50,472 nucleotides of DNA from Candidatus Sungiibacteriota bacterium (GTDB lineage Bacteria > Patescibacteriota > Minisyncoccia > Sungbacterales > HO2-52-23). This document shows, piece after piece, positions 30,165 through 45,952 of the stretch. The DNA lies in the NCBI GenBank assembly GCA_016186095.1, contig JACPMG010000019.1, positions 1 to 50,472 on the forward strand, given 5' to 3'. Made by a program: the position numbers and the translations under genes. The notes under the pieces are model-generated. The model was not told where the DNA came from and made no database searches. It worked only from the letters and a program-made list of their open reading frames with translations. The stretch's first letter is position 1. Each line of letters starts with the position of its first letter.

Positions 30165-30275
30165 TTTACTTCGCAAAACGTGTAACGCGTAGCATATAAC
30201 GCAAGTTCTTGCGATACACGATACACGATTTGCGCTACACAATTATGAACGACCTTGCTCTTCTTAAAACTATTT

Positions 30276-30392
30276 ACCCTCCCAACTTTTTGCAGCGGAG
30301 TAACTTTTTGCCGTAGGATTTCGTATACCTTTAGCGTCTTACTCTCTATCCAAGCGTAAGCAGAAAACTCTGATGCAAAAAGTTGGGAAGGT
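30276..30392. mobile_element. 117-bp inverted-repeat element (MITE-like)
   Basis: ACCCTCCCAACTTTTTGCAGCGGAGT / ACTCTGATGCAAAAAGTTGGGAAGGT (23/26 complementary). Confidence 0.55.
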
Positions 30393-30508
30393 TCATTGGC
30401 CTTTCAACATCCACGAGAAATCGTGATATATAAGACCTTATTATGTTTTAATACTGGGCTATTTATCAAGTATAGCATAGGGAAAAGAAAATTGCAAATA
30501 TGCTCGTC

Positions 30509-30658
30509 GATGCGGTTTCCTCGCCAATATGCTTTTTCAACACGTCTTGGCCGCTCCCGCGGCGGCCTGCGCTAATAGTCGGATGCGGTTTCCGCCTTCG
30601 GCGGACCAAGCAAACCGCATCCTCCATTGTCTCAAAAGCATATTGGCTCGACCGCATC
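30509..30658 (-). repeat. Structured ~150-nt element, copy A
   Basis: Minus strand has the conserved blocks ACAATGGAGGA, GCTTGGT, GACTATTAGCG and CGTGT and the same stem layout as copies at 36764, 42576 and 45328. Confidence 0.9.
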
Positions 30659-30731
30659 TTTACTCGCTAAGACATAACCAGCCAAGAACGCCGAAATATT
30701 TTCGTAGATCAAATGCTGTCTATAGTCAATC

Positions 30732-31797
30732 TTAAAAAATCCTCACGATATCCTTATACGTCACCAAAATCATAATAAGCACCAAAAACGCAAACCCGAG
30801 GGCGTGAGCGAAATTCTCCGCGGAAGGCGCAATTCTCCGTCCTCGCACCTTCTCAATCAAAAGAAAAAGAATCCGGCCTCCGTCAAGCGCGGGAATCGGC
30901 AAAAAATTTAAAATGGCCAAGTTCACCGATAACATCCCGATAAATTGTAAAACATAAGAGAAGCCAAGGGCCATGGTATCGCGGGCAAAGAAGAAAATCC
31001 CCACCGGGCCGGATACTGCCGCGGATACCTTCCTCTCAACAAAAATATCTTTGAGCAAAATCCCAAGACCCCGCACAGTTACCTCAACACTCCCCACAAG
31101 CGTTTTCAAACTCCCAAGGCGCTAAGTAAAACGGAGCGCGTTTAACAGTCAACCGCGCAAGCGCAATGCCTAAAGGACCTTCACCCTCGGGGAAATTTGG
31201 CCTCGGCACCGCCTTTATCTCCTGAACCGCGTTTCCGCGCCGGATAAGAAGGGTAACCTCCTCCCCCCGATAGGCATCCACAAAATCCCGCACGTCTTTT
31301 TCCGACTCTATGCGAAGCGATGCTCCCTCGGCCCGCATCTCCAAAATCTTATCTCCAAATTTAAGTCCCGCCGTATCTGCCGGTGAACCGGCAAGAACGC
31401 CTATTATGGACACCGGCGCGCCGCTCCCCGCCTCGTCCTCCACCTGCGGAACTCCGATGCCCGCCCCGACGCTGAAAAAAACCCAAGCCAGCACCAGATT
31501 CATAAATACTCCCGCGGCCAAAATTATAAACCTCTGCCAAGCCGGCCGGGAAATAAAACTTTTGGGGTCCTGCTCCCCTTCCCCGTGCTCGCCGAAAATT
31601 TTCACAAAACCGCCAAAGGGGAGAAGATTGAAAGAGTAGCGGACGCCATTTTTTACTTTTGCATAAACTTTGGGAGGAAACCCAAACCCAAATTCCTCTA
31701 CTTTCACTCCCAGTTTTCGTGCCGAATAAAAATGCCCCCATTCATGTACGAGGATTAGTAAACTTATAACGATTAAAACAAGGATTAGCGTAGCCAT
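30732..31797 (-). pseudogene. rseP: Site-2 protease RseP (M50 with PDZ), split by a frameshift near 31110
   Basis: HEWGH zinc motif and PDZ in ORF 31084-31797; SGPVGI and NFLPIPALDGG in ORF 30732-31109 in another frame. Confidence 0.85.
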
Positions 31798-32519
31798 ATA
31801 AGATACTCCGCATTTCCGCTGCCGCCCCGTATCGGCGACTCCATCTGTCCCATTATTTTCCAGCCGTGCTCTTCAGCCCATTGCAGGAAATTTTCTAGAA
31901 GTCCTTCGCGCTCTTTGGTATCGCGTATAACGCCGTGTCTTAAGATTTTGGAGTCGCGCGTCTGATACTGCGGCTTAAATAGCGCGATTATATCTCCTCG
32001 GAGCTTCAAAAAATGCCTCATGTGAGGCAGGATATTTTCCAGCGGAATCAAAGATACATCCATGGTAGCAATTTCTATCGGATCAGGCAACGATTCAATA
32101 TCACGTACATCAACCCCCTCCATCACCGCGACCCGTGAGTCCTCACGAAGTTTGGGCGCCAATTTTCCGCGCGCGGTGTCAATCGCGTAAACTTTTCTGG
32201 CGCCATATTTCAGCAAAACCTCCGTGAATCCACCCGTGGCCGCGCCGATATCGGCGCAGATTTTACCGGAAACATCAATCTTAAATTTCTCCAGAGCCGC
32301 TTCGAGTTTATATGCCCCGCGGCCGACAAATTCTCTCGGGCCACGGACTTCAACCCTCGCGTCCGGATAAACCTGCTGCGCCGGAGAGGTAGCCTTCTGT
32401 CCCTCAACAAATACCCGCCCTTCGGTAACAATAATAAACGCTTCCTGCCTGTCTCTGGCCCATCCTTTTTCGATCAAAATTCCGTCCAGTCGTTTTTTTG
32501 CCTTTTTGGGATCGCCCAT
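31785..32519 (-). CDS. tlyA: TlyA family rRNA 2'-O-methyltransferase
   Basis: S4 domain (KKRLD), FVGRGAYKL, DIGAATGGFT, LFKPQY, SPIRGGSGNAEYL. Confidence 0.93.
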   Translation of the reverse strand: MGDPKKAKKRLDGILIEKGWARDRQEAFIIVTEGRVFVEGQKATSPAQQVYPDARVEVRGPREFVGRGAYKLEAALEKFKIDVSGKICADIGAATGGFTEVLLKYGARKVYAIDTARGKLAPKLREDSRVAVMEGVDVRDIESLPDPIEIATMDVSLIPLENILPHMRHFLKLRGDIIALFKPQYQTRDSKILRHGVIRDTKEREGLLENFLQWAEEHGWKIMGQMESPIRGGSGNAEYLIWLR

Positions 32520-32530
32520 GAATACCAGTT

Positions 32531-33082
32531 CTACCCGCTTTCTCCGCCTTCGTCATGTTCTGGCGGCGATTCTTCATCATCATTATCGTCTGGCTTTTCT
32601 TCTCTTCCTTTTCTTTTCTCTTCTGCCAACTCCGGCAATCGCGAAAGTATAGCTTTGTTCGAATCCAAAAAATCCGGTCCGCGCAGCTCTTCGGCAGTCG
32701 CCCAACGAAGCTCGTCATGAACTACTAAAGGTGACTGCACCCACCCAATAATTCTACATATAAAACCATGCAGACGGAACGCATTCCCATCGGGAAGGTT
32801 GACATCCGTAACGGAAAGCGTGCGGACAATTTCAACGTCCATGCCTATTTCCTCCAAAACTTCCCGGCGTAAAGCCTCTTCAGGGGACTCCCCTGCCTCA
32901 ATTCTACCTCCGATGAATGCCCATTTACCGGCATATGGTTTGTCCGGCGCCCGCTTCCCTATCAAAAATTTTCCATCCTGTTCAATTATGGCAACAGCCA
33001 CATTAACATACTCGGGCGATTCTTTGCGCTTTGAGCCCTGCTCCGGTGATATTGATGAATCTTTAGGATTTTCTGTATTCAT
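32531..33082 (-). CDS. MutT-like NUDIX hydrolase
   Basis: GKWAFIGGRIEAGESPEEALRREVLEEIG. Confidence 0.88.
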   Translation of the reverse strand: MNTENPKDSSISPEQGSKRKESPEYVNVAVAIIEQDGKFLIGKRAPDKPYAGKWAFIGGRIEAGESPEEALRREVLEEIGMDVEIVRTLSVTDVNLPDGNAFRLHGFICRIIGWVQSPLVVHDELRWATAEELRGPDFLDSNKAILSRLPELAEEKRKGREEKPDDNDDEESPPEHDEGGESG

Positions 33083-33084
33083 AA

Positions 33085-33627
33085 TTATACCGTTATTAGT
33101 TCCTTCTCTTTTATCATCCCCATCTCCTCAATTTTTTTATTTATCTCGTCCACGATCTTCTGGATTTCGTGTTTCTCGCGGAATCTTTCATCCTCGCTGA
33201 TTTCTTTAGCTTTTTCTTTCCGGTCGGTTTCCCTAAGCATATCCTCCCGCTCCCTACGCACGTGAATCCGCGCATCTTCCAGATATCTGCCCAATAATTT
33301 GGCAAGTTCTTTTCTCCGCTCCTCGGTGAGCGGAGGGATGGAGAGCCGGATCATATCTCGATCCGTAACCGGATTTAAGCCGAGAGAAGAACTCTGGATC
33401 GCCTTCTCAATAGGCTGAATAGCATTTTTGTCCCACGGCTGAATTATTAAAGACCGCGGCTCGGGGCTGGAAATAGACGCAATAGCTTTCAGCTGGGTTT
33501 TGGAACCATAATAATCAATTTCTAAATCCTCCACGAGTGCCGGGGTGGCGCGGCCGGTACGCAAACCGGCAACTTCTTGTTTAAGATGCTCAATTATTTT
33601 TTCTAATTTTTGTTTAAATTCCTGCAT
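33085..33627 (-). CDS. frr: Ribosome recycling factor
   Basis: LRTGRATP, IQPWD, PPLTEERRKEL. Confidence 0.97.
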   Translation of the reverse strand: MQEFKQKLEKIIEHLKQEVAGLRTGRATPALVEDLEIDYYGSKTQLKAIASISSPEPRSLIIQPWDKNAIQPIEKAIQSSSLGLNPVTDRDMIRLSIPPLTEERRKELAKLLGRYLEDARIHVRREREDMLRETDRKEKAKEISEDERFREKHEIQKIVDEINKKIEEMGMIKEKELITV

Positions 33628-33630
33628 ATG

Positions 33631-34806
33631 CTATCTTCCCAAAACAATGAACATTGTATCCGTCTTTAGTGGATGAATCAAAATTCTATTGATTTTTCCT
33701 TTCGTATCAATAGTTTTAACGTTCCAGTTTATTCCTCCGTCGTCGCTCCGATGAATTTGATTTAAGGCCGTGGCAAAAATGGTGGCGGAATTGCGCGGAT
33801 GCACGGCCACTGATTTTACCGGCAGAGCTTCGGGCGGGATCAAAACATCCAGCCGCTCCCAAGAAAATCCGCCGTTGGTTGAACGCAAAAGCCCGTCCTG
33901 CGATCCAATATACAAAGTAGTAAAGATATTGGGGTCGGCAACGAGCGCTTCCAACGATTTACCAAAAGCGCCTCCGGCAAAAGGATTACTAAAGCTTGGC
34001 TGAATTGAAGGGCGCCCTTCCATTTCCGCGCGCGCGTTGGCCAATCTCTGCAATCCCTCATTCAAATCCGCCCAATTCTCCCCGCCGTCAAAAGTTTTGA
34101 AAAGATTTTTTCCCGAAGTCGTGACCAATATTTCTCCGGAGAATACCGGGTTCACCAGCATCCGTGTCAAAGCCTCGCTAAACCAGCGTCTCACCCTCCA
34201 AGTCCTGCCGCCATTTCTTGTTTCGAGCACCCCGCCCTGACCGGTGGCGATAACCACGTGATTCGAATCTTGCGGATCAACATATAGATCAAACACTCCG
34301 AAGCGATTGGCGGTAACGAAATAAACTTCCCGGAAGCTCTCGCCTCCATCTCCGCTTTTTAACACTCTGCCTCTGTTATTCTGAAAAACGGCCAAGTAAA
34401 TAATCTGGGGCTGGGAACGGCTCACCGCGACTTTATAGACATCAGCGCCCGGATCAAGAACGCGCGCCTTGTCGGACACCTTCTGCCATGAGCTCCCTCC
34501 ATCTTTGCTTCTCCACAGGCCGGATCCTTTGCTGCCTATGAATAATATGTCCGAGCTCGTGGCATGAAAAGCAAAATCCAGAATTTCTCTCGGAAACCTG
34601 ATACGCCCTTCGGTAGAGTTGGCCGCGCTCGTCCAAGTAGTACCGCCATCCTGCGAGCGCAGGAGCCCCTCGCCTGCCGCGACAGCTCCTCCGCTTATGG
34701 AACCAAACTGCAAGACATTAAAACCGGCAATACTTAAAACAAACGGCAGAACCACCACCAAACCGAGGATAACGATGAGTATGATAAGAATAACTTTGAA
34801 AATCAT
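33631..34806 (-). CDS. Membrane-anchored BNR/Asp-box beta-propeller protein (YCF48-like)
   Basis: Repeated S.DGG.TW motifs and an N-terminal TM. Confidence 0.85.
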   Translation of the reverse strand: MIFKVILIILIVILGLVVVLPFVLSIAGFNVLQFGSISGGAVAAGEGLLRSQDGGTTWTSAANSTEGRIRFPREILDFAFHATSSDILFIGSKGSGLWRSKDGGSSWQKVSDKARVLDPGADVYKVAVSRSQPQIIYLAVFQNNRGRVLKSGDGGESFREVYFVTANRFGVFDLYVDPQDSNHVVIATGQGGVLETRNGGRTWRVRRWFSEALTRMLVNPVFSGEILVTTSGKNLFKTFDGGENWADLNEGLQRLANARAEMEGRPSIQPSFSNPFAGGAFGKSLEALVADPNIFTTLYIGSQDGLLRSTNGGFSWERLDVLIPPEALPVKSVAVHPRNSATIFATALNQIHRSDDGGINWNVKTIDTKGKINRILIHPLKTDTMFIVLGR

Positions 34807-35687
34807 AATTTTACGGGATCGGCAGCTAAGGCCTCAAGAAAAATTGTATCCATAGCAAGACACGGATTAACATTAGTAGTATCAAGTACCTCGGCCATAC
34901 GAATGATGGCCCGGAGCGCCCGAAATCGCGGAGCGGTCCCAGCGGCACCCGCCTTCAGAAGACCCGCTCTTACCATCCGCACTACATATTCTATCACTTT
35001 TCTACGCTCTTCATCATCGGACGCTACTTTCTCCGCTAAACTAAACGCCTGCGGAAAATCCTTGTTACGCAAGATATCGTGCACGGATCGAAGCAGTTTT
35101 TTTTGCGCGTCAAGATAAGTTTTATCCTCAAGCATCCTAATCATCGCACCGGGCCTGCCTACGGCCAAATGTAAAATTTCTTTCTGATTCTCGCTCAAAA
35201 CGCCTCTTTGGACGAGATACCCGGAGAGAACGCTGTCCGGAACCAGCGAGAACCGAATCGGCTGGGCGCGGGATAAAATAGTCTGCCCAAGCAAGTCCGG
35301 CGCGGAAGTAACCAGCAAAAAAAGAGTTTTCTCGCCCGGCTCCTCAAGAAGTTTCAAAAAAGCATCCCCGGCCTCCGGGCTTAATTTCTCCGCTTCATTT
35401 ATAATAGCAATACGCCACTCCCCCTCCGGAGCGGCCAGAGCGAACATACGTTTGAGCTCGCGAATATCCTCAATGGGTATGTCCTTGCGCTTATCTTTTT
35501 TAGAAACAAGAGTATTCTCCAGATCAAGAATAATCGGGTACGGGCATGGGAGTTTTTCCGCAATACTTTTGGCCACGCTAAGTTTTCCCACGCTCTCCGG
35601 CCCGTGAAAAAGATAGGCATGGCTAATACGCCCGTTTTTCAAAACTTTCTCCAGATATTCAATTTGCCGCTCGTGTCCGAGGATCAT
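34803..35687 (-). CDS. holB: DNA polymerase III delta' subunit
   Basis: HAYLFHGPESVGK, IEDIREL, AFLKLLEEP, TILSR. Confidence 0.9.
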   Translation of the reverse strand: MILGHERQIEYLEKVLKNGRISHAYLFHGPESVGKLSVAKSIAEKLPCPYPIILDLENTLVSKKDKRKDIPIEDIRELKRMFALAAPEGEWRIAIINEAEKLSPEAGDAFLKLLEEPGEKTLFLLVTSAPDLLGQTILSRAQPIRFSLVPDSVLSGYLVQRGVLSENQKEILHLAVGRPGAMIRMLEDKTYLDAQKKLLRSVHDILRNKDFPQAFSLAEKVASDDEERRKVIEYVVRMVRAGLLKAGAAGTAPRFRALRAIIRMAEVLDTTNVNPCLAMDTIFLEALAADPVKL

Positions 35688-35713
35688 AGATCAATGCGTG
35701 GATAAATAGAGTC

Positions 35714-36724
35714 CTATCGTTTTGACATTATGCTCCTCTTGTAAACATCAAGATGTTCCAAAGCAATCCCCGTGCCTTTGGCCACGCATAAAAGCGAATT
35801 CTCGGCAATATGCGCGGGCACGCCGGTTTCCTGAAAGACTAGCTCATCAATATTTCTCAATAAAGAACCCCCGCCGGTCATCACAATTCCTTTATCCATA
35901 ATATCCGCGGCCAGTTCCGGAGGCGTGTCGTGCAAAACTGATTTTATAGCACGCACTATTTCATCAAGCTCATCGGCGATCGCATCCGTCACTTCAGGAG
36001 AATTAATTTCAACGGTCTTGGGAAGCCCAGACATCAAGTCGCGGCCCTTAATCTCCATTTTTAATTTTTCATCGTCCACCGGCACCGCGGATCCGATCTT
36101 AATTTTAATATCCTCGGCGGTCCGGTCTCCGATGGCTAAATTATAATTTTTTTTGATGTAATCAGAAATCGCCTGGTCTAGTTTATTTCCAGCAACTTTA
36201 ACCGAGGTGGAAGCGACAATCCCGCCCAAAGAAATCACCGCCACATCCGTAGTTCCTCCTCCAATATCCACCACCATATGGCCGGAAGGTTCATTTATGG
36301 GGATACCCGCGCCGATGGCTGCGAGCACCGGCTCTTTTACCACATAGGCGGCCTTAGCTCCGGCCTGCACAGTAGCCTCAATGACCGCGCGCCTTTCGGT
36401 GGAAGTCACACCCGCGGGAACGGATACCATCACTTCCGGGCGAAACAACCTGAATTTTCCTCCGGCTTTGTTGATAAAATAACGGAGCATGGCTTCGGTA
36501 ACGCGGTAGTCGGCAATAACGCCGTCTTTCAACGGCCTGTAAGCCACAATAGTCTCCGGAGTCCTGCCGATCATCTCACGCGCCTCGTTACCCACGGCGA
36601 GCACCGTATTTTCATCGCGCGATACCGCCACCACTGACGGCTCATTAATAACCACACCCCTTTTCGGAACAAAAACAAGGGTGTTGGCGGTGCCGAGATC
36701 AATGCCTATTTTCCTTATGAACAT
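35714..36724 (-). CDS. mreB: MreB/Mbl paralogue
   Basis: [24 protein letters not shown]; start at MFIRK. Confidence 0.95.
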
Positions 36725-36763
36725 GTCCGTCCACCACCCACCAAGCAAGGCTTGAGTTTAACT

Positions 36764-36917
36764 TGTAGGCGGTCGAGACAATATGGTTTCGAGACAATGG
36801 GAGGAGCGATTTGCTTGGTTCCGCCAAAGGCGGAAAATCGCGACGACCATTAGCGAGCTCGCCGCTGGAGCGAGCGAGTCGTGTCTCGAAACCATATTGT
36901 CAAGGAAACCGCCTACA
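36764..36917 (+). repeat. Structured element, copy B
   Basis: TGTAGGCGGT/ACCGCCTACA outer stem and a 20-bp GACAATATGGTTTCGAGACA/TGTCTCGAAACCATATTGTC stem; overlaps the murA stop codon. Confidence 0.9.
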
Positions 36918-38211
36918 CTCTTTTTATATCCGCTCCCAATTCCCTCAATCTCTCATCAATCTTCTCATACCCTCTATCCACATGCTCCACTCCGGAAATC
37001 ACCGACTCTCCCTCTGCTACGAGCGCGGCGATCATATGCGCCATGCCTGCTCGTATGTCGGTCATAACAATTTCTGTTCCTTGAAGCTTTGCGGGACCGG
37101 CGATCACTGCGGTATGGCCTGAGCCCTGCCCGTGGAAACGGCACACAAATCCGCTGGGACAATCCGTCAAAACACTGATTTTAGCACCCATGCGGTTTAA
37201 GTCCCTGGTATAGCCGAAGCGATCCTCATAAATGGTCTCATGTATTATTGATTCACCACGGCCTCTGGTCAAGAGAACGGAAAATGGCTGCTGCCAATCG
37301 GTCATAAAGCCGGGGTGTGGAGACGTTTCTAAATTTAGAGCACGATACGACCCACTTCCTGAAAACCTTATACCATCGGCTTGAACCTCGTATAATCCGC
37401 CCGCCTCCTTTATTTTTTCTAAAAAAGAAATAAGATCCTGCTCCCGCGCCCCGTGGACAAAAACATCCCCGCCAGTTGCGAGAGCCGCGACGGCAAACGA
37501 TACCGCCTCATTGCGGTCCGGCATAACGCGCGCTTCAACGCCGTGAAGCTTTTCCACGCCATTGATTTCAATCAGACGTCGCTTCTCATCATGCTCTATG
37601 TCGGCACCCATCGACTTCAACATGCCGGCAAGACCAAAGATCTCAGGTTCAATCGCGGCATTGCGTATTACGGTTTTACCATGCGCAAGAACCGCAGCCA
37701 ACATCACATTCTCCGTAGCCCCTACCGACGGAAAAGGGAAATCAATATCCGCGCCGTGAATTTCTTTTGCCTGGACAAAATAAGACTCGGGCCGCCTCTC
37801 AACTTGGGCCCCCATTGATTTTAAGGCCTCCACATGAAAATTAATCGGCCGGTGGCCTATGGGACAACCTCCGGGAACAGGAACTTCGGCATACCCTTGA
37901 CGATGCAGAAGCGGCCCTAGGGCTAAAATGGGTATCCTGTTTTTGCGCGTAAGTTCCGTGAGACGCGTATTTCTAATGCTTGGCGTCACCAGTCTGCAGA
38001 TGCGCTCCTTGCCAACCGCGACCCTGCTCCCAATATGTTCACACAATTCCCGGGTAATATCGGTCTCCGCGGACAATGGGATATTCTCAATAACACACGG
38101 CTCATCGGTAAGCAAAGACGCGATCATCATCTTGGATGCCATATTTTTGGAGCCGCGTACCTCTGCCTCTCCTTTTAGCGGGCGTCCGCCCCTTATGCGA
38201 AGCTTTTCCAT
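36913..38211 (-). CDS. murA: UDP-N-acetylglucosamine 1-carboxyvinyltransferase
   Basis: GSKN, PGGCPIGHRP, SVGATEN, HPGFMTD.Q, DIRAG, DRGYE. Confidence 0.96.
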   Translation of the reverse strand: MEKLRIRGGRPLKGEAEVRGSKNMASKMMIASLLTDEPCVIENIPLSAETDITRELCEHIGSRVAVGKERICRLVTPSIRNTRLTELTRKNRIPILALGPLLHRQGYAEVPVPGGCPIGHRPINFHVEALKSMGAQVERRPESYFVQAKEIHGADIDFPFPSVGATENVMLAAVLAHGKTVIRNAAIEPEIFGLAGMLKSMGADIEHDEKRRLIEINGVEKLHGVEARVMPDRNEAVSFAVAALATGGDVFVHGAREQDLISFLEKIKEAGGLYEVQADGIRFSGSGSYRALNLETSPHPGFMTDWQQPFSVLLTRGRGESIIHETIYEDRFGYTRDLNRMGAKISVLTDCPSGFVCRFHGQGSGHTAVIAGPAKLQGTEIVMTDIRAGMAHMIAALVAEGESVISGVEHVDRGYEKIDERLRELGADIKRV

Positions 38212-38277
38212 GCGATCAATAGTACCTAAATACTCGTACTTTTCAAGACGGAAAATTTCTGATACTATTGGACATTG

Positions 38278-39369
38278 ATGACCAAATATAAACGCCGAAA
38301 AATTTTCTACCTTCTTGTGGCTGCTTTTCTTCTGGTATCGCCCCTACTTGTCGGCTATTCTTTAGGCTACACATTGGATTTCGTCCAGGGGGATATTAAA
38401 AAAACAGGCGGTATTTTTATTAAATCAAAAACTCCGCGCCTCTCGATTTTTTTGAACGGGGAGTTTGCCCGAGAAACCTCGTTGATCTCCGGCGGCGCTC
38501 TACTTACCGACGTCGCGCCCGCAACGTATCTTTTGCGCATAGAGAAGACGGATCATAACCCATGGTCCAAAACCGTTTCCGTGGTACCGGAGATAGTTAC
38601 GGAACTGCGAGATATCCTGCTTGTGCCCAGGGACATTAAGCCGGCGACCACCACACCCAAAGCGCTAGCGCCCATGCTTGCGACCACCACTTCCATAGCT
38701 TCCGAATTTAAAATTGATAAAAAAGATAATTTAACCCGCAAGGTAGGCAAAAATACTAAAGTGGTTTCGGCGGGAGTTAATTCTTTCGCGGCGCTGAATA
38801 GCGCGCTTTTCTTCGTTGACAAAAACGGGTTTCTGGCTAAATTCTCGCCCGATGAGGAGACCCTGGAGACCATTGGCAGGCCGGGATTTTATCTGACCGA
38901 CGCACCTTTGCGTTTTTTCCAGTCCCCGTCAGGAGACATCGTGATTCTTGACTCCGGCGGAGGGGTTTTTCTGCTGGATACGGAAGGCAAAATAACTACG
39001 GCCGGAGGCGACGCAACAAATATCTACTTTGATAGCGACGGGGACAAGATGCTTATACAGAAAAGGCAAAGTATTGAGGTACGGCGGTTCGCTGACAATA
39101 CCTATCAACCTTTTCAGAAAAGAGGCGCGGAGGAAACCATACTACGTCTTGACTCTCCTATTCGTGATGCGCGCTGGTTTTACCAAGATGACGCGCATAT
39201 TGTCATCCGCACCGATGACGGAATTTTTCTTACCGAACTTGACGGCCGCGGCGGCAGAAATACGGCAGAGCTGGTTTCCGGAAAAACTGACGAACTCCTC
39301 ACCGGGCCGGAGATCCCTGACACAATTTTTTTCCGCAAAGGAAAAACATGGTCTAAAATTGAATTATGA
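38278..39369 (+). CDS. Membrane-anchored PEGA-domain protein
   Basis: TM then YSLGY...KTGGIFIKS.....IFLNG..Y.LRIEK....W.K.V.V pattern and beta-rich C-terminus. Confidence 0.8.
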   Translation: MTKYKRRKIFYLLVAAFLLVSPLLVGYSLGYTLDFVQGDIKKTGGIFIKSKTPRLSIFLNGEFARETSLISGGALLTDVAPATYLLRIEKTDHNPWSKTVSVVPEIVTELRDILLVPRDIKPATTTPKALAPMLATTTSIASEFKIDKKDNLTRKVGKNTKVVSAGVNSFAALNSALFFVDKNGFLAKFSPDEETLETIGRPGFYLTDAPLRFFQSPSGDIVILDSGGGVFLLDTEGKITTAGGDATNIYFDSDGDKMLIQKRQSIEVRRFADNTYQPFQKRGAEETILRLDSPIRDARWFYQDDAHIVIRTDDGIFLTELDGRGGRNTAELVSGKTDELLTGPEIPDTIFFRKGKTWSKIEL

Positions 39370-41168
39370 TGACTAACGTTGCCCAAAGAAAAAAACCGGA
39401 TGTAAACCGCCAGAACATAACGGCCATCACGAAAGTCTATTGGAGTCACGTCAGGCGCTATCCGAAACTGACTTCGGTCGTATTTTTATTTACGGTCGCT
39501 GTACACATAGTTAGTGTTATAACACCCTTGTATTTCAAAAAGCTTTTTGATGCCATCACGTTTCCCGGAGCAAACGTTAGCGAAACCTATCCCCTTCTTA
39601 TTAACATCTTCGCTATCATCGCTCTTCTATACTCCCTGGCCTGGATCTTCCGCAGAATATCCGAGTTTGCCTTCCTCCATTTTGATGCTTTTATATTATC
39701 CGATCTATTGAATACCGCTTTTGAAAATTTACTCGGTCATTCTTATAAATTTTTTACCGACAATTTTACCGGATCGCTGGTTAGACGGGTGAACCGATTA
39801 AGCAAATCGTTTGAGGACATCGCCGATAGAATACAGGGCCAGTTGTTGCCCTTGGTTATCGTCACCACGGGTATCCTTATAGTACTTTTCAACAGGAATA
39901 CTTTATTGGGCATAATTCTTTTATCCTGGATTGTGCTTTTCGTTTTCGTATTCTATCGGGTAGCTTTATGGAAAACCAAATACGACCGCGCCAAGGCCGA
40001 AAAAGACTCGGAGGCAACCGGCGTCATATCGGACGCGCTTGCCAACGCCGTAACCATAAAGCTTTTCTCCAGACACGCGTATGAACAATCTCTTTATCAA
40101 AAAATCACCGACGCCTTGCGAGAAGCGCGGCTTATTTCCTGGAAGATAGGGGCGAGCATAGACGCCGTTCAGGGTATTTTTATGTTGCTGGCAGAATTGG
40201 CGCTATTATATATCGCCCTTAGACTGTGGAAACAAGGCGTCCTTACCGTCGGGGATTTGGTGCTTTTGCAGTTGTACGTGATCAACTTATTTGACCGCAT
40301 GTGGGAATTTGGGCGGGTGATCCGCCGTATGTATGAAAGTTGCGCCGATGCGGCGGAAATGGTGGAGATAATGAATACGCCCTATGAAATAAAAGATGCG
40401 CCTGCGGCAAAGCCCATTAAAGTAGAGCTAGGGAGTATTGAATTTCGCGATATAGAGTTTCGCTTCCACGGCACGAGAAAAGTTCTTGACAAATTCAACC
40501 TAAAAATACCGGCTGGAGAAAAAGTTGCTTTGGTGGGACCGTCGGGCGCGGGCAAAACAACCGTGGTAACTCTGTTACTGCGTTTTCACGAAGTTTATGA
40601 CGGGCAAATACTTATTGACGGGCAAAATATAGCCCGCGTGACGCAGGAGAGTCTGCGTAAGAATGTTTCTTTGGTGCCGCAGGAGCCGATTCTTTTCCAC
40701 CGCACGCTTAAAGAAAATATCCGCTATGGTAAACTCGACGCTACCGACGAGGAGGTGATGGAGGCGGCCAAACAAGCGCATTGTCACGAATTTATTATGC
40801 AGCTGCCCTACGGTTACGAGACCTACGTGGGAGAGCGCGGGATAAAACTCTCCGGCGGAGAACGCCAGCGCGTGGCCATTGCGCGGGCCATTTTGAAAAA
40901 CGCGCCCATACTGATACTTGATGAGGCGACTTCAAGTCTTGATTCCGAGTCCGAGGCGCTGATTCAGGAGGCCTTGAAAAATCTTATGCGCGGGAAAACT
41001 ACTCTAGTGATAGCGCACCGCCTCTCCACGATCATGCAGATGGATCGCATCATTGTGATCCAAAATGGCCGCATAACCGAAACCGGCACGCATCAAGAAC
41101 TCCTTCAGAAGCACGGAACTTACCAAAAACTCTGGAAGATACAGGCCGGAGGATTTGCCGCGACATAA
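39366..41168 (+). CDS. ABC transporter, fused permease/ATPase (exporter)
   Basis: TM domain, GPSGAGKT, LSGGERQR, ILDEATS, IAHRLST. Confidence 0.95.
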   Translation: MMTNVAQRKKPDVNRQNITAITKVYWSHVRRYPKLTSVVFLFTVAVHIVSVITPLYFKKLFDAITFPGANVSETYPLLINIFAIIALLYSLAWIFRRISEFAFLHFDAFILSDLLNTAFENLLGHSYKFFTDNFTGSLVRRVNRLSKSFEDIADRIQGQLLPLVIVTTGILIVLFNRNTLLGIILLSWIVLFVFVFYRVALWKTKYDRAKAEKDSEATGVISDALANAVTIKLFSRHAYEQSLYQKITDALREARLISWKIGASIDAVQGIFMLLAELALLYIALRLWKQGVLTVGDLVLLQLYVINLFDRMWEFGRVIRRMYESCADAAEMVEIMNTPYEIKDAPAAKPIKVELGSIEFRDIEFRFHGTRKVLDKFNLKIPAGEKVALVGPSGAGKTTVVTLLLRFHEVYDGQILIDGQNIARVTQESLRKNVSLVPQEPILFHRTLKENIRYGKLDATDEEVMEAAKQAHCHEFIMQLPYGYETYVGERGIKLSGGERQRVAIARAILKNAPILILDEATSSLDSESEALIQEALKNLMRGKTTLVIAHRLSTIMQMDRIIVIQNGRITETGTHQELLQKHGTYQKLWKIQAGGFAAT

Positions 41169-41205
41169 ATAAAATAACGGGGTTTGAGCCCCGCTATTTT
41201 ATTTA
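41166..41205. terminator. Bidirectional terminator between convergent ABC and rpsI genes
   Basis: TAAATAAAATA-A-CGGGG-TTTGAG-CCCCG-C-TATTTTATTTA. Confidence 0.7.
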
Positions 41206-41212
41206 CTTACAT

Positions 41213-41776
41213 TTAACGCTTCGCCCATTGCGGAGCCTTGCGCGCTTTTTTAAGACCGAACTTCTTGCGCTCTTTCATGCGAGGGTCGCGGCGCATGAAT
41301 CCGGCCCGCTTAAGGCGCTTGCGAAAATCGGCGTTGAATTTAACCAGGCATCTAGCCAGGCCGTGCCTAACCGCTTCGGCCTGGCTGTGGATTCCACCAC
41401 CGGAGACTTTCACTGATACGCGGAAACGGCCAAAAAGCTTCATTTTCTGCAAAGCATCCTCGGCTATTTTCTGAAGATCAAGAGTCGGGAAATATGTGCC
41501 GTAGGGTTTATTATTGACCATAAAATCGCCCGCCTTGGTAAAAAGACGTACGCGGGCCACAGAAGTTTTTCTCCTACCGACCGCCTCAAAATAGCGATCC
41601 GGTTTCAGAGATTTGTCCTCCTCAACATTCACAGGCAAACTCTCAGCCTCGACAGGCTCTATGATTTTCTTTGCTCTGGGCTTTTTTACCTCCTCTCCTG
41701 CCGCAGCTACTTTTACTTTTTTCTTTACCCCGCTCTTTTTCAAAAGGGCGGGGTTTACGACTTCTTTCTTGGCCAT
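41213..41776 (-). CDS. rpsI: 30S ribosomal protein S9 with N-terminal extension
   Basis: GRRKTSVARV, GGG..SQAEA.RHG, ERKKFGLKKARKAPQWAKR. Confidence 0.97.
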   Translation of the reverse strand: MAKKEVVNPALLKKSGVKKKVKVAAAGEEVKKPRAKKIIEPVEAESLPVNVEEDKSLKPDRYFEAVGRRKTSVARVRLFTKAGDFMVNNKPYGTYFPTLDLQKIAEDALQKMKLFGRFRVSVKVSGGGIHSQAEAVRHGLARCLVKFNADFRKRLKRAGFMRRDPRMKERKKFGLKKARKAPQWAKR

Positions 41777-41777
41777 A

Positions 41778-42128
41778 TTACCTTTCAGCTCTCAAAAGAA
41801 TAAGATTTTTTATATAACGCGCGCGGAGCTTGTTCTTCGGCAACATGCCCATAACCGCTTTACGCAAAACCTCGCACGAATCGCGCGCGAGGAGTTCCCG
41901 CAGTTTTTCTTCTCTAAGTCCTCCGTGGAATCCGGAGTGGCGCCGATAAAGTTTTTGCGTAAGCTTCTTTCCGCTTACCCGTATTTTATCCGTATTAGAA
42001 ATGATCACCCGGTTCGCGGTGAATTTTGCAGGATCAAAACCGGGATTGTTTTTCCCGCGCAAAAGTATTGACACTTCAGTGGCAAGCCGTCCTAGAATTT
42101 TATCGGTTGCATCAATTTTATATTCCAC
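41778..42128 (-). CDS. rplM: 50S ribosomal protein L13 (short form)
   Basis: IDA..KILGRLA, YRRHSG..GG, AVMGMLPKNKL; GTG start. Confidence 0.96.
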   Translation of the reverse strand: MEYKIDATDKILGRLATEVSILLRGKNNPGFDPAKFTANRVIISNTDKIRVSGKKLTQKLYRRHSGFHGGLREEKLRELLARDSCEVLRKAVMGMLPKNKLRARYIKNLILLRAER

Positions 42129-42129
42129 G

Positions 42130-42190
42130 AGCTTTTAGCTTTTAGCTTTTAGCTTTTAGGTCCGCTCCTAGAAGCTATAAGCTGGAAGCT
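42130..42190. repeat. Heptamer palindromic array (AGCTTTT)x4 plus inverted units, filling the rplQ-rplM spacer
   Basis: agctttt x4 ... agaagct ataagct ggaagct. Confidence 0.8.
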
Positions 42191-42536
42191 ATTTAACCAA
42201 TTCAATTATGGCCATTTTCGCTCCATCACTAATCCTTACGCCCAATTTTACAATCCTCGTATATCCGCCGGCTCGTCCGGAAAACGTCCGCCCAAGCTCC
42301 ATGATTTTTTTTACCACAGCGGGCGCAAAAAGTTTTCGAAACAATCTCCCGTTGGCAGGCGCGGGGTTCTTGGCCCGCGTAATAAACTTTTCCACGAATG
42401 GGCGCAATTCCTTGGCCTTAGCCTCCGTGGTCTTAATCCGCCCCAGCATAAAAAATGAAGAGGCCAGACTCTTCATAAGCGCGCGCCTTTGATTTCTCTC
42501 TCTTCCAAATTTTCTACCTTTCTTAAGGTGTCGCAT
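42189..42536 (-). CDS. rplQ: 50S ribosomal protein L17
   Basis: MRHLKKGRKFGR, IKTTEAKAKE, R.GGYTRI; true start at 42536. Confidence 0.97.
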   Translation of the reverse strand: MRHLKKGRKFGRERNQRRALMKSLASSFFMLGRIKTTEAKAKELRPFVEKFITRAKNPAPANGRLFRKLFAPAVVKKIMELGRTFSGRAGGYTRIVKLGVRISDGAKMAIIELVK

Positions 42537-42575
42537 ATTTATCTCCCACACTTCTAGCTTGGGAAGTTTTTTAAT

Positions 42576-42729
42576 GAGGCGGGTGGCGGCTATTTCGTCT
42601 GCAAACAATGGAGGATGAGATTTGCTAGGTTCTGCGCAAGCGCAGAAAATCTCATCCGACTATTAGCGAGGTTTACCGCTGGAGTAAACCAAGCGTGTTT
42701 GCAAACGAAATAGCCGCTGTAACCCGCTC
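42576..42729 (+). repeat. Structured element, copy C
   Basis: GCGGCTATTTCGT.TGCAAACA/TGTTTGCA.ACGAAATAGCCGC stem with conserved loops; abuts the rpoA stop. Confidence 0.9.
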
Positions 42730-43691
42730 TATTGTTTCAAAGTAATCCCAAAATTTCCCAACGCTTTTTTCACTTCCTGAATCCCTTTATCCCCCATCCC
42801 TTCAATACCGCGCAAGGTTGACTCTTTTTTACGAGAAAGTCCGCCCACGGTCTTGATACCCGCCTCTCGCAGCGCATTCAAAGTACGGCTGGAAAACTTA
42901 AGCTCATCAAGCTTAACCTTAAACGCCGACTCGTCAAGAATACCTTCTTTGTTTTCGTCCGCCGCCTTTTCTGTAATCCCCGCCGTATCGCGGAGTTTTA
43001 CCGCTGCTTCTGCAAACCCTTCGCCCAAAGCGCCAAATTGCTCGACAAGAATCTGCGCCGCTTTGGTAAATGCTTCACGCGGAGCGAGCGACCCATCCGT
43101 CTCGATGTCAAAACGTACAAGATTGTAATCTATCCTATCCCCCACGCGCATATTTTCCACCGCATAATTCACATGCCGCACCGGGGAAAACGCGGCGTCC
43201 AAGGCAATAGTCCCCACTTCTACTTTTTCTTTGGTACGGGCCTCGGCCGGAACGTAGCCGAATCCGGACTCCACAATCGCCTCCGCCTCAAACTTCGCTT
43301 TCTTTGAGGTAAGCGTTGCTATGTGAATATTAGGAGTCACCAACTCGACTTGAGATGGAATTTTAAAATCTTTGCCCTTTACTTCTTTCTCGCCGCTTGC
43401 CGAAATCGTTATGGTGAAAGGACCTTCCTCGTACAGGCGGAAACGCATCTGCTTTAAATTTAAAATCAAATCCACCATATCCTCCTTAATTCCCTCCATT
43501 GTTGAAAATTCGTGCCCCACGCCGACGATTTTTACCGCCGTCAAAGCAGCGCCCTTTATGGAGGAAAGGAGAACCCGGCGAAGACTATTGCCGATGGTCT
43601 GGCCGTAACCCGGATACAATCCTTCAATTTCAAAAACCGCGCGATTTCCTTCTTCAGATACTACCTTTGGCTTAGATGGAAGTGAGATCAT
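42729..43691 (-). CDS. rpoA: RNA polymerase alpha subunit
   Basis: GYGQTIGNSLRRVLLSS, HEFST, DAAFSPV, alpha-CTD (FSSRTLNAL); start at MISLP. Confidence 0.97.
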   Translation of the reverse strand: MISLPSKPKVVSEEGNRAVFEIEGLYPGYGQTIGNSLRRVLLSSIKGAALTAVKIVGVGHEFSTMEGIKEDMVDLILNLKQMRFRLYEEGPFTITISASGEKEVKGKDFKIPSQVELVTPNIHIATLTSKKAKFEAEAIVESGFGYVPAEARTKEKVEVGTIALDAAFSPVRHVNYAVENMRVGDRIDYNLVRFDIETDGSLAPREAFTKAAQILVEQFGALGEGFAEAAVKLRDTAGITEKAADENKEGILDESAFKVKLDELKFSSRTLNALREAGIKTVGGLSRKKESTLRGIEGMGDKGIQEVKKALGNFGITLKQ

Positions 43692-43704
43692 ACCACGCAA
43701 GACA

Positions 43705-43767
43705 TAAAATATAAGTTTTAAGATATAAGTTCAAACTGACAACTTATAACTTAAACCTTATACCTAT
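43705..43767. repeat. Heptamer palindromic array (TATAAGT-type) in the rpsD-rpoA spacer
   Basis: ataaaat ataagtt ttaagat ataagtt ... aacttat aacttaa accttat acctat. Confidence 0.6.
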
Positions 43768-43768
43768 T

Positions 43769-44389
43769 TTATCTTGAATAAAACTCTTTTATCTTTGTCA
43801 CATCGGCCGTAAGTTCGACCCCTTCCGGAAGGGGGTTGGAAACGACTGTGCCTTCCTTGCGTGAACTGTCAAGCGCAAGCCAGGCAGGTGCTTGATATTT
43901 TTTAAGCCGCTGCTCAAGTTCGCCCAAAAATCCTTTTCGGAGCGATCTTTCTTTAAACGCTATTATCTCTCCTTTTCTCACACGATAAGAAGGAATAGTA
44001 ACCGTCTTTCCGTTCACTGTTATATGACCGTAGCTCACGAGGTGTCTTGCCGATCTTCGCGATTCAGCAAACCCCAAACGAAACACTGCATTATCCAGCC
44101 GGCGCTCTAAAAACTCCAGGAAATAGGAACTAAAAACGCCCGGACGTCTGGCGGCCTCTTCAGTATAGCGCTTTACGTCTTTATCGTCAAGGCCGTATAA
44201 AAATCTGACTTTCTGCTTCTCCCGTAGAAGTCCCGCAAATTCGGAGGCTCCGCGTCTTCTTGCCTTGCCATGGACTCCGGGAGGAAAACCGCGGCGTATC
44301 AAGGCGCATTTGGGACCAGAACAACGCTCCGCTTTTAGGCCGAGTTTTTCTCCGAGACGCCGTTCTACTTTTTCTAATATTTTAGGCAT
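43769..44389 (-). CDS. rpsD: 30S ribosomal protein S4
   Basis: PPGVHG, LREKQK, LERRLDN.VFRLG, VSYGHI.VNG, EFYSR. Confidence 0.97.
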   Translation of the reverse strand: MPKILEKVERRLGEKLGLKAERCSGPKCALIRRGFPPGVHGKARRRGASEFAGLLREKQKVRFLYGLDDKDVKRYTEEAARRPGVFSSYFLEFLERRLDNAVFRLGFAESRRSARHLVSYGHITVNGKTVTIPSYRVRKGEIIAFKERSLRKGFLGELEQRLKKYQAPAWLALDSSRKEGTVVSNPLPEGVELTADVTKIKEFYSR

Positions 44390-44406
44390 AAGATAATGCA
44401 ACGTCA

Positions 44407-44847
44407 TCAGACGCGCCTCACTTTCTTCGGCCGCGGACCATTATGCGGCAGAGGAGTTATATCTTTTATGGAAGTCGTGTTGAGTCCCTGGTTGGCAAGA
44501 GCGCGAATCGCCGAATCCCTTCCCGAGCCAACCCCACTTACTAAAACAGAGACCTCTTCAAGCCCGTATTTTCTGGCTTTTTCCACAACTGTTTCAGCAA
44601 CACGGGCAGCGGCAAAAGGCGTTGCTTTCTTGGCTCCCGAAAACCCAAGCGAGCCGGCCGATGACCAAGCCACTGCATCGCCCTTCTCATCGCTAATAGT
44701 GATAATCGTATTATTATACGTCGCCTGAATATGGGCTATACCGCGCGCAATACGTTTACGTGCCTTAACTTGACGCGGCTTTACCGCGATACCTTCTTTG
44801 GCCTCACCAGCCACTTCACTTTTTTGTATGACGCGTTTTTTACCCAT
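44407..44847 (-). CDS. rpsK: 30S ribosomal protein S11
   Basis: [27 protein letters not shown]. Confidence 0.98.
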
Positions 44848-44854
44848 GATTTTT

Positions 44855-44918
44855 ACTACGAATTACGAATTGTACGAAAGTACGAATTCGTATATTCGTA
44901 AGATTCGTTATTCGTAGT
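44855..44918. repeat. Palindromic TACGAA/TTCGTA array in the rpsM-rpsK spacer
   Basis: Four TACGAA units followed by four inverted ATTCGT units. Confidence 0.8.
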
Positions 44919-45305
44919 CTACGTAGGGCTTGCCGCCGGTTTTCTCCCCGACCCCATGGTCTTTCTCACATTTCCCCTGCGCGTACGCGAATTGGTTTTA
45001 GTCCTTTGCCCCCGTACCGGAAGCCCGCGGATATGCCTTGACCCGCGATAAGTTGAAAGTTCACGCAGACGCTTAATATTCGTCATGATCTCACGGCGCA
45101 AATCCCCTTCTATTTTATGACTCTTTTCAATAATCTCACGAAGGCGATTAACCTCCTGAGCGGTCAGGTCTTTGGCGCGTTTTCCGGAATCGACTTGGGC
45201 CTGTTTTACAATTTTTCTCGAAGATGACAATCCGATCCCGTAAATATACGGAAGCGCATACTCAATTTTTTTGTTATCGGGAATGTTTATACCTGCGATA
45301 CGCAT
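44919..45305 (-). CDS. rpsM: 30S ribosomal protein S13
   Basis: [29 protein letters not shown]. Confidence 0.98.
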
Positions 45306-45327
45306 ACTTTTATTTTCCTTTTCCTAT

Positions 45328-45500
45328 ATTGCAAGCCGTTAGGTCGAACCGATATGTTTTCGAGACAATGGAGGATGCGGTTAGCATGGTTCCCGCTATA
45401 AGCGGGATAACCGCATCCGACTATTAGCGAAGTTTTGTCGCTGGACAAAACAAGCGTGTCGAGAAAACATATCGGCGAGGACACCTTAACGGCGAGCAAT
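45328..45500 (+). repeat. Structured element, copy D
   Basis: GCCGTTA/TAACGGC, CCGATATGTTTT/AAAACATATCGG, GGATGCGGTTA/TAACCGCATCC stems with conserved loops; abuts the rpmJ stop. Confidence 0.9.
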
Positions 45501-45613
45501 TACCCCTGCCTTTGTTTATGCTTCGGATTCGTACAAATAATAAATAATCGGCGTTTGCGCCGGACCAATTTACACTTTGCGCACATAGGTTTTACGGATG
45601 CTCGTACCTTCAT
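45500..45613 (-). CDS. rpmJ: 50S ribosomal protein L36 (not in the ORF track, 37 aa)
   Basis: Translates [37 protein letters not shown]. Confidence 0.98.
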
Positions 45614-45634
45614 CGTCGCTTTGCTCCTCATATG

Positions 45635-45737
45635 ATGCAAATCTACAAATTTTATGCCAATCTACCAATCACTAATAACTGGCATAAACCGATTCGCGAT
45701 TAGCAAAATTGGCATTAAATTCGCATCGGATTGGCAT
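45635..45737. repeat. Degenerate palindromic array (ATGCNAAT/ATTNGCAT units) in the infA-rpmJ spacer
   Basis: atgcaaat ctacaaat...atgccaat ctaccaat ... attggcat...attcgcat...attggcat. Confidence 0.6.
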
Positions 45738-45952
45738 CATTTAAGTCGATGCACTATCCTTCCTTTGGTCTCATCATACGGCGTCATCTCCACGCGCACT
45801 CGATCTCCGGGAAGCACCTTAATATGATGCAGGCGCATTTTCCCGGAAAGATGGGCAAGAATCTCTCTCCCATCGTCCAGCTTGGCCTTAAAAAGGGTGC
45901 CCGGAAGATTTTCGAGCACGATCCCCTCCTGGAATATGTTATTTTTCTTCAT
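45737..45952 (-). CDS. infA: Translation initiation factor IF-1
   Basis: ENLP...F...L, AHLSGKMR, PGDRVRVEMTPYD..KGRI. Confidence 0.97.
   Translation of the reverse strand: MKKNNIFQEGIVLENLPGTLFKAKLDDGREILAHLSGKMRLHHIKVLPGDRVRVEMTPYDETKGRIVHRLK

Follow-up and report, generated by a model that had tools for sequence, protein, structure and literature searches.

Contig JACPMG010000019.1 of a Candidatus Sungiibacteriota genome, analysed over its whole length of 50,472 nt (the window), carries four copies (A to D) of a structured element that belongs to a large, old and so far apparently undescribed family of dispersed intergenic elements in tiny, Parcubacteria-type groundwater bacteria of the Candidate Phyla Radiation (CPR). 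Dispersed structured intergenic repeats are a known kind of element; unusual here are a three-way junction in the fold, conservation across a class, and a fixed antisense polarity at stop codons. Contact between the element and the stop codon of an opposite-strand gene is the most informative feature, and was absent from the original prediction, in which the four copies had been described from the letters of the window. To our knowledge, no bacterial genomes are more compact than those of the CPR (Patescibacteria), whose non-coding elements, transcription termination and mobile DNA are very little understood.

The fold is complex (~160 nt) and reaches 40 copies in genomes of a megabase or less, with its polarity at stops kept even within the essential-operon junctions rpoA-rplQ and rpmJ-rpsM. 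If the element acts in transcripts, it would show how organisms without a detected Rho delimit their genes, and mobility would point to a structure-guided copying mechanism of a new type. The family is a candidate Rfam entry and a useful annotation marker where copies break assemblies and create spurious open reading frames (ORFs).

Copies, fold and covariation

The window is contig C8 of a 32-contig, 680-kb genome (G000) that is 92% complete. The genome was searched using nhmmer and a covariance model, R1, made from eight copies; R1 was given a hand-checked structure because the RNAalifold consensus for 10 copies aligned with MAFFT paired the apical hairpin wrongly. Ten copies were found, comprising eight canonical ones at 140-164 bits, one with an insertion and one divergent. 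The four canonical copies of the window (nhmmer E-values of 1e-45) lay at the coordinates and on the strands originally predicted, A on the minus strand and B, C and D on the plus strand, and shared one fold (Table 1). Copy D was resolved into a core at 45338-45490 and an outer GCAAGCC/GGCGAGC layer (TTGCAAGCC/GGCGAGCAA) reaching 45329-45499.

The element is ~150-170 nt long, and one of its strands forms a long outer hairpin (P0, P1 and P2) capped by a tight three-way junction with two arms (P3 and P4). P0 is an optional outer layer, GCGAGC against GCGAGC with a central tandem G.A, which was seen by eye in ~12 of 42 copies. Between P1 (5-9 bp) and P2 (~19 bp, in some copies with another tandem G.A) lies an asymmetric internal loop, GGUCGAG / CGAGGNAACC, with tandem G.A pairs. 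These are replaced by Watson-Crick pairs in a few copies (variants CGC/GCG and GGC/GCT); the loop of copy C reads GGC / GCTGTA. Arm P3 carries a 7-nt bulge, GCNNGGU, and a variable apical hairpin, and arm P4 has a near-invariant G.U at its base and a 7-nt loop, CGCNGGA. The outer stem, the CGA/(G/A)AGGAA loop of A, B and D, the ACA/TGT stem and the three-way junction of the original prediction were recovered in the alignment, by RNAalifold and in single folds. Its ATGG...C(T/C)AT arm with the GC(T/A)(T/A)GGT bulge and apical palindrome, its TAGCG linker and its CGC(T/G)GGA loop were likewise seen.

Each of the eight canonical copies folded by itself into the common shape, with a minimum free energy (MFE) of -76 to -91 kcal/mol. 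Apical loops were mostly of 3-4 nt and of neither the GNRA nor the UUCG type; triloops accounted for 49 of 100 loops in 97 segments. In the internal loop CGA/GAG covaries to CGC/GCG and GGC/GCU, which on inspection fits a tandem G.A and a C-G pair followed by a 3-nt bulge. The kink-turn consensus runs C-stem, 3-nt bulge, then G.A and A.G pairs, 5' to 3' on the bulged strand; on inspection, the order in the present loop is the reverse of this.

In an alignment of 43 model hits (the window and 35 loci) 93.3% of cells paired, compared with 34.9-48.7% when the partners were slid by 1-3 columns. Changes on both sides were found at 52 of the 56 pairs, and none of 500 shuffles reached any of five measures. 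For 88 hits from two congeneric genomes (G017 and G028) the corresponding results were 91.9% of cells, 54 of 56 pairs and 0 of 500 shuffles. Because each alignment was fitted to the model, the structure is favoured somewhat. Between copies, both sides changed at 18-19 of the 19 pairs of P2 (helix 3 of the model) and at all 8 pairs of P1. The fold is under selection. The compensatory stems quoted in the original prediction were correct, as were the G.U of ATGG/CTAT that becomes G-C in the ATGG/CCAT of copy B and the tandem G.A pairs of A and D that are Watson-Crick in B. A small conserved ORF within the element was ruled out by the differing frames between copies and by the compensatory stem changes. 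Spurious ORFs of 56-70 aa arise from the copies on both strands (window 30466-30670 and 45224-45499).

Non-canonical pairs were counted in 38 strong copies. G.U or U.G occurred 102 times vs 22 for A.C or C.A, and G.A or A.G 67 times. Two special pairs supplied 47 of the 102, leaving 55 vs 22; with these two pairs removed, a second set gave 118 vs 54. The modelled strand was the more stable in 36 of the 38 copies, by a mean of 6.3 kcal/mol (the complement averaged ~-75 kcal/mol). Because of the G.U excess, the lower MFE and the tandem G.A, which on the other strand would be U.C/C.U mismatches, the modelled strand is identified as the strand under structural selection, in agreement with the earlier call.

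A second family, ~95 nt long, has the same outer hairpin and GGTCGAG/CGAGGNAACC loop, with an inner hairpin that is different and far more uniform. Three of its seven copies contact an opposite-strand stop codon, with gaps of 0, 5 and 5 nt.

Position of copies against stop codons

Copy B is antisense to the murA/EPSP-synthase-family gene and mreB, copy C to rpoA and rplQ, and copy D to rpmJ and rpsM. Copy A is the sole window copy sense to its neighbours, as had been observed before; it lies ~70 nt past the stop (30732) of a peptidase M50 ORF and contacts no opposite-strand stop codon.

In the set of best hits per genome (42 copies) the downstream gene was on the opposite strand in 34. An ORF search at the 3' end found an opposite-strand ORF of at least 46 aa, its stop -10 to +34 nt away, in 27 of 31 further copies, and these stops mostly lay <=5 nt from the model end. 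With B, C and D added, stop contact at the 3' end was found in 30 of 34 copies; copy A and the canonical copy on contig C29 are exceptions. In G017 and G028 together, 32 of 68 copies of at least 50 bits contacted an opposite-strand stop at the 3' end, and the 5' end lay beside a same-strand stop in only 4. Among 28 copies in convergent spacers, 20 had the 3' end <=11 nt from a stop and 5 had the 5' end <=21 nt from one. Since such spacers need no ribosome-binding site on either side, the polarity is intrinsic to the element. In distant genomes, two of which are outside the class, 4 of 5 hits followed the contact rule. Genes in the relatives were simple ORF calls, which brings some error into the context counts, and copies within and between related genomes are non-independent, which makes the p-values rough.

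The stop codon may fall within P1 or P0. It does so in copy B, and at locus L017 the last two codons of the gene constitute P0. The genes touched are ordinary core genes, among them rpoA, rpmJ, rplL, secY, groEL, the murA-like gene and those for class II ribonucleotide reductase (RNR), PBP2, GtrA, a class II aminoacyl-tRNA synthetase and RpiB. Pairs of gene and element recur across genera: the rpoA site is occupied in 3 of 30 genomes, RNR C-termini are contacted in G000 and G021, and GtrA in G000 and G001. Derivation of P1 from the target was ruled out at the empty rpoA site of G006, in which the last 30 coding nt are identical and the P1 sequence is lacking. All three stop codons are used among the touched genes. 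TAG was about two-fold in excess (16 of 40 touched genes in G000, G017 and G028 vs 8.1 expected, p = 0.004) against a crude ORF-based control.

Only 3 of the 42 copies of the first set and 13 of the 68 of the second were sense to both neighbours, which bears out the earlier opinion that the element is not a simple mRNA leader. A 5' leader, riboswitch or T-box was accordingly rejected; no more than 5 of the 68 end beside a same-strand start codon. About one-quarter of copies lie in reverse orientation. In G017 the orientation tracks GC skew (24:13) less well than it tracks the genes. Every touched gene in that genome is co-directional with replication, and gene and replication effects on orientation are therefore inseparable there.

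Table 1. Coordinates of element copies, parts of copy B, contacted stop codons, short-family copies and Y1_Tnp-like genes. Contig C8 is the window, whose positions are given without a contig prefix.
Feature	Position	Strand	Details
Copy A, core	30509-30658	-	162.6 bits; extent 30502-30667 with outer GCGAGT/ACGAGC layer, tandem G.A
Copy B	36764-36917	+	147.1 bits; between murA/EPSP-synthase-family gene (36913-38211, -) and mreB (35714-36748, -)
Copy C	42576-42729	+	159.5 bits; between rpoA (42729-43700, -) and rplQ (42189-42608, -)
Copy D	45329-45499	+	140.3 bits; between rpmJ (stop 45500-45502, -) and rpsM (44919-45305, -)
Canonical copy outside window (copy E)	C18:22128-22287	-	model R1
Canonical copy outside window	C29:15673-15841	+	model R1
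Canonical copy outside window	C11:6765-6923	+	model R1
Canonical copy outside window	C15:884-1043	+	model R1
Variant copy	C32		one arm with 60-nt insertion
Divergent copy	C13		40 bits
Short relatives	C6, C9		one on each contig
Copy B, P1 5' strand (GTAGGCGGT)	36765-36773	+	pairs with 36908-36916
Copy B, internal loop 5' side, CGA	36774-36776	+	with 36902-36907 (AAGGAA), the GGTCGAG / CGAGGNAACC motif
Copy B, P2 5' strand, 19 nt	36777-36795	+	pairs with 36883-36901
Copy B, arm P3	36796-36851	+	AATGG...CCATT, inner stem, bulge GCTTGGT 36813-36819, apical hairpin 36820-36834
Copy B, arm P4	36853-36882	+	GCG/CGT base with near-invariant G.U, 6-bp stem, loop CGCTGGA 36863-36869
murA-family stop codon TAG	36913-36915	-	inside P1 3' strand of copy B
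rpoA stop codon TAG	42729-42731	-	contacts 3' end of copy C
rpmJ (L36) stop codon TAA	45500-45502	-	contacts 3' end of copy D
Short-family copies	C6:12131-12228, C9:38726-38823, C25:~5936-6033	+	
Short-family copies	C15:27795-27892, C18:18661-18758, C29:5991-6088, C2:~20494-20591	-	
Y1_Tnp-like gene	C1:~8.2-8.9 kb	-	
Y1_Tnp-like gene	C4:~4.7-5.0 kb	+	
Y1_Tnp-like gene	C28:~12.0-12.8 kb	+	

Distribution and turnover among genomes

Matches to the covariance model were obtained in 32 of 61 relatives of the same family and order, with 0-40 per genome, in 22 of 151 genomes of a class sample, from many families, and in 5 of 151 genomes of a phylum sample, two of them outside the class. The family is larger than was noted in the original prediction. 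An exact motif pattern gave 58 stretches among 185,579 species genomes, of which 45 were titled Parcubacteria group, Sungbacteria/Sungiibacteriota, Patescibacteria, Peregrinibacteria or 'Saccharibacteria'-labelled metagenome-assembled genomes. When 10 pattern stretches were re-tested with the model, all 3 from CPR matched. None of 4 non-CPR stretches did so (Lysinibacillus, Blastopirellula, Acidiferrales and Lustribacter; 4 of 13 such titles), nor did any of the 3 that the pattern gave in viral contigs.

A search of the whole window against Rfam 15 at gathering threshold returned a SAM riboswitch as the sole hit and nothing at the copies, which agrees with the earlier failure to recognise a named family. 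At E<=10 over 30000-46000 there were 12 weak hits, none overlapping a copy core; the nearest ended at 45312, before copy D. No description of the element was found in the literature, including a 224-motif paper and two 2026 preprints, with supplementary motif lists outside the search.

Of 30 genomes of the family, 3 carry an element at the rpoA-rplQ site, and the other 27 spacers contain 0-225 nt of unrelated sequence, often with other hairpins. The comparison of G017 with G028 covered ~70% of the former and ~90% of the latter, with 88 model hits. Of 43 elements with both flanks mapped, 21 had a counterpart in the other genome and for 22 none was detected. The empty sites that the original prediction had led one to look for were seen cleanly once: a G017 element stands between a TGA stop and the TTA before the next gene's Shine-Dalgarno sequence, and G028 reads TGA-TTA-Shine-Dalgarno. 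A 2-nt TT target duplication is possible at this single site. At most other polymorphic sites a stretch of about the same length, unrelated to the element, took up the spacer. Many unrelated hairpin or tandem-like repeats lie behind stop codons in relatives (rpoA-rplQ spacers of loci L038-L066; G017 contig C7 at ~325-331 kb), and one recurring G017 repeat was present at two spacer sites.

The best paralogues of elements present in only one of the two genomes were 72-86% alike. Having no close paralogue, such elements look like old copies lost from the other genome and not like new insertions. Paralogues in general were mostly 60-80% alike, with three pairs at 93-98%. Among 13 orthologous filled pairs, six were 80-92% identical, equal to or above their flanks (64-88%). 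At other orthologous sites the copies were 50-70% alike, a likeness so low that a different, replaced copy is taken to occupy the site. Copies D and E are ~97% alike inside and differ in P1 on both strands, and the 5' outer part of E is that of copy A; this mosaic suggests recombination between copies. The family is old, with slow turnover, recombining, and constrained once its copies have settled.

Contigs from four DNA runs (Logan assemblies) were aligned to 30000-46100, and contig breaks coincided with copies. Some joints in these contigs skip spacers from conserved gene ends. The shorter side of such joints measures 22-39 nt with 85% likeness, so that an origin in other organisms of the samples is most likely, and they carry no weight on excision.

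Known repeats and competing explanations

Genes for enzymes that could move or copy the element were sought using domain models. TnpB (PF07282), DEDD transposases of IS110 and DDE_3 (IS630-type) were each found in 0 of 5 genomes, other DDE families being outside the search. RVT_1 was found in 3 of 5 genomes, and in neither G000 (10 copies) nor G028 (40 copies, 72% complete); a retroelement-borne RNA (retron, group II intron or SINE-like) was rejected on that account. Y1_Tnp-like genes were present in 46 of the 61 relatives overall, namely in 25 of the 32 that have the element and 21 of the 29 that lack it; Y1_Tnp was not found in G017, which has 37 copies. The genome of the window holds three such genes (IS200/RAYT-like, 215-237 aa, one truncated), each flanked on both sides by its own unrelated ~20-nt hairpin in a REP/RAYT-like layout; contigs C1, C4 and C28, on which they lie, carry no element. 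No longer copy with an ORF was found, the long variants of 206-235 nt being too short for one.

Passages of a published account (PMC2817692) describe repetitive extragenic palindromes (REPs) as hairpins of ~20-40 nt in which a GT(A/G)G head precedes a short, imperfect, GC-rich palindrome, and place a RAYT gene between two inverted REPs. The element resembles REP, BIME and REPIN sequences in being dispersed and extragenic, in folding as a single strand with compensatory pairing, in lying at gene 3' ends and in varying in number among relatives. It differs from them in its length of 150-170 nt, its three-way junction and its conserved loops, has no conserved head (<=0.36 bit outside the GGTCGAG motif), and neither adjoins nor co-occurs with Y1-like genes. 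A RAYT-mobilised REP or REPIN was rejected, there being no head sequence and no cognate RAYT flanked by inverted copies.

ERIC (or IRU) sequences, the Correia elements of Neisseria and bcr1 of Bacillus are intergenic repeats of ~100-170 nt that form long hairpins in transcripts, often near stop codons, with orientation-dependent effects on neighbouring mRNAs; inverted repeats conserved in sequence form their termini, and they show target duplications, TA for example. The present element is like them in length, long hairpins and closeness to stop codons. It is unlike them in that its outer stem covaries instead of being conserved, its inner part is a conserved three-way junction, and neither an established target duplication nor a matching transposase family was found for it. 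A classical miniature inverted-repeat transposable element was rejected, since the terminal stems covary and are not conserved in sequence; DDE_3 and IS110 were each found in none of the five genomes searched.

The attC sites of integrons conserve structure over sequence, have a functional strand antisense to the adjacent gene, and mark that strand by unpaired bases. The element shares with them, in geometry only, a folded strand antisense to a gene and beside its stop (the 30 of 34 and 32 of 68 copies above). Unlike attC, it forms no cassette arrays, its copies being on 8 contigs beside core genes such as rpoA, rpmJ, secY and rplL (integrase was outside the search), and it conserves internal loops and a junction, not R and L boxes at the base. 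The guide or scaffold RNAs of IS200/IS605 and IS110 elements (omega/reRNA, bridge RNA, HEARO) are likewise ~150-180-nt structured RNAs in several copies with variable flanks; the present element differs in having ends that pair together, and nothing like a variable, unpaired guide loop was seen. An IS200/IS605 derivative or a TnpB/IscB guide RNA was rejected because of these paired ends, the failure to find PF07282 or IS110 in any of the five genomes, and the absence of any HEARO or IS605-orfB Rfam hit. A canonical intrinsic (Rho-independent) terminator was rejected as well, with no U-tract at the bases of the folds.

Our preferred reading, which is tentative, is that of a structured repeat of the REP/ERIC type that selection retains at gene 3' ends in Rho-less CPR bacteria and that functions as an orientation-dependent RNA. 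The element would be copied rarely into spacers behind stop codons, and settled copies would then be held by purifying selection in the host. The better fold would arise on antisense or convergent transcripts and serve there as a barrier or stable end, while the weaker complement in operon mRNA would let transcription of rpoA-rplQ, rpmJ-rpsM and similar pairs pass; the conserved loops may be read by a protein. The RNA nature of the active form (as against single-stranded DNA), the barrier or end function, the reading of the loops by a protein and the way in which new copies originate are inferred. The RNA-binding domain of Rho (PF07497) was found in 0 of 5 genomes (G000, G006, G012, G017 and G021, one of them a complete single contig) by a search that was positive in 9 of 14 known genomes used as a control, and more of the ending or containment of transcripts may therefore fall to hairpins. 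This reading is favoured because the spacer niche behind stops is filled with hairpins in relatives and because orthologues are conserved like coding sequence. The ratio of G.U to A.C, 30:7 in copies sense to both neighbours and 47:28 in antisense copies, is a weak hint that the transcribed strand, whichever it is, comes under selection; this difference is marginal, and the copies are non-independent.

Several results weigh against it. No conserved promoter was found when 55 copies were anchored on GGTCGAG (<=0.36 bit from -80 to -5, no TANNNT peak), and a sigma-70-like site lay just upstream of none of the four window copies. No terminator-like U-tract was present; 0 of 35 terminator-like sites coincided with the base of a copy's fold. 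A T-run on the sense (mRNA) strand followed ~10 of 32 copies, the junctions being read by eye. The C-termini of touched genes were not A-rich (mean 4.2 vs 3.7, p = 0.18), nor was T in excess in the flank of the folded strand, so that a U-tract borrowed from the touched gene is not indicated. Spacer types were observed at 36/10/2 and expected at 35.0/6.8/6.2 (p = 0.11), no more than a trend, towards more copies in convergent and fewer in divergent spacers. No RNA run containing the sequence was found, the matching runs being 5 DNA metagenomes from groundwater or freshwater. A barrier, moreover, needs neither strict contact with a stop codon nor elaborate conserved loops, and the reading gives no account of how a 160-nt element multiplies without a recognisable enzyme. 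No single model accommodates all findings. Possible, though on balance unlikely, is a strand-specific gene-end module, a three-way-junction RNA (or single-stranded DNA) read by some factor through its GCNNGGU, CGCNGGA and G.A-rich loops; set against stop codons with fixed polarity, it would end or process antisense and convergent transcription with no need of a U-tract, or copy itself to new gene ends in a structure-guided way without the known transposases.

The original prediction proposed a structure-selected non-coding RNA or a mobile element of single-stranded DNA; selection on the fold was upheld, and mobility in part. A non-autonomous element moving as folded single-stranded DNA, in the manner of REPIN/RAYT, IS200/IS605 derivatives or attC, is thought rather unlikely. 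Its mismatch-loop hairpin would be the site of a structure-specific enzyme, and its orientation and position would reflect insertions tolerated in a very compact genome. The spread of 0-40 copies among the 61 relatives, presence or absence at orthologous sites (the 22 of 43 mapped elements without a detected counterpart and the one clean empty site), several orthologous sites with replaced copies 58-70% alike and the mosaic of D, E and A speak for movement. So does the short family, since a shared outer hairpin and loop are expected if that hairpin is needed for propagation. The 3-4-nt apical loops outside the GNRA and UUCG types fit DNA, a tandem G.A within CGAG forms stably in either nucleic acid, and the bottom strand of attC is antisense to its cassette gene, beside the stop codon. 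No such enzyme was found, however, among the TnpB, IS110 and DDE_3 families in the five genomes, a reverse transcriptase is absent from the genome of the window, and no longer copy with an ORF was found; the Y1_Tnp-like genes are uncorrelated with the element and have hairpins of their own on either side. The termini share no conserved sequence, a target duplication is nowhere clear (the one possible TT apart), most paralogues are old, elements found in one genome only look like losses, and orthologues match or exceed coding flanks in conservation. The folded strand, moreover, is on the leading-strand template in 24 of 37 G017 copies (GC-skew table), opposite to the lagging-strand template of the IS200 type.

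Conservation of orthologues would also be expected of stand-alone genes for a stable ~160-nt RNA, made from the folded strand and binding a protein or another RNA; speculative partners are ribosomes (GGAGG, GAGG), tRNA 3' ends (GGU, GGA) or, for a cis-antisense RNA, the 3' end of the touched gene's mRNA. The strand-specific fold with its invariant unpaired motifs, near-invariant junction G.U and tandem G.A motifs, its conservation across many families of the class and in two genomes elsewhere in the phylum, and loop motifs kept equally in sense and antisense copies (similar model scores) accord with such genes. They are nevertheless considered improbable: no promoter was conserved at a fixed distance, the 5' end is only 14-38 nt from the next gene's start in several copies, no terminator signal was found, and 0-40 copies with absence from 29 of 61 relatives would be unusual for an essential trans-acting RNA. 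Contact with stop codons, too, is unexplained unless the RNA is cis-antisense. In a further explanation the working molecule would be the complement, a REP-like hairpin at the mRNA 3' end that stabilises or ends the upstream message, and the folded-strand call would be misleading. Most copies start 0-10 nt behind the upstream gene's stop, the sites after rplL, rpmJ, groEL and secY are what we take, from E. coli operons, to be classical operon ends or attenuator sites, the complement is itself very stable, and other hairpins occupy the same place in relatives. This explanation is judged quite improbable all the same. On the mRNA strand the G.U pairs turn into A.C mismatches (102 vs 22 and 118 vs 54 in the two sets) and the tandem G.A into U.C/C.U, in 36 of 38 copies the complement folds less stably, no U-tract follows most copies, and about one-quarter of them are reversed. 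Strand-biased deamination would be expected to give the opposite asymmetry.

Three further features of the window were recorded. The SAM riboswitch (RF00162) lies at 21260-21391 on the minus strand and scored 57.2 bits against a gathering score of 44.4. A weak match to the alpha-operon ribosome-binding-site leader (RF00140; 45276-45312, minus strand, 24.9 bits, E = 0.03, below the gathering score) is located at the start of rpsM, beside copy D. The peptidase M50 (RseP-like) gene (30732-31797, minus strand) is split into ORFs at 31084-31797 and 30732-31109; two extra bases behind 31110 were present in contigs of all four DNA runs, which makes a frameshift of the assembly or strain the probable cause of the split.

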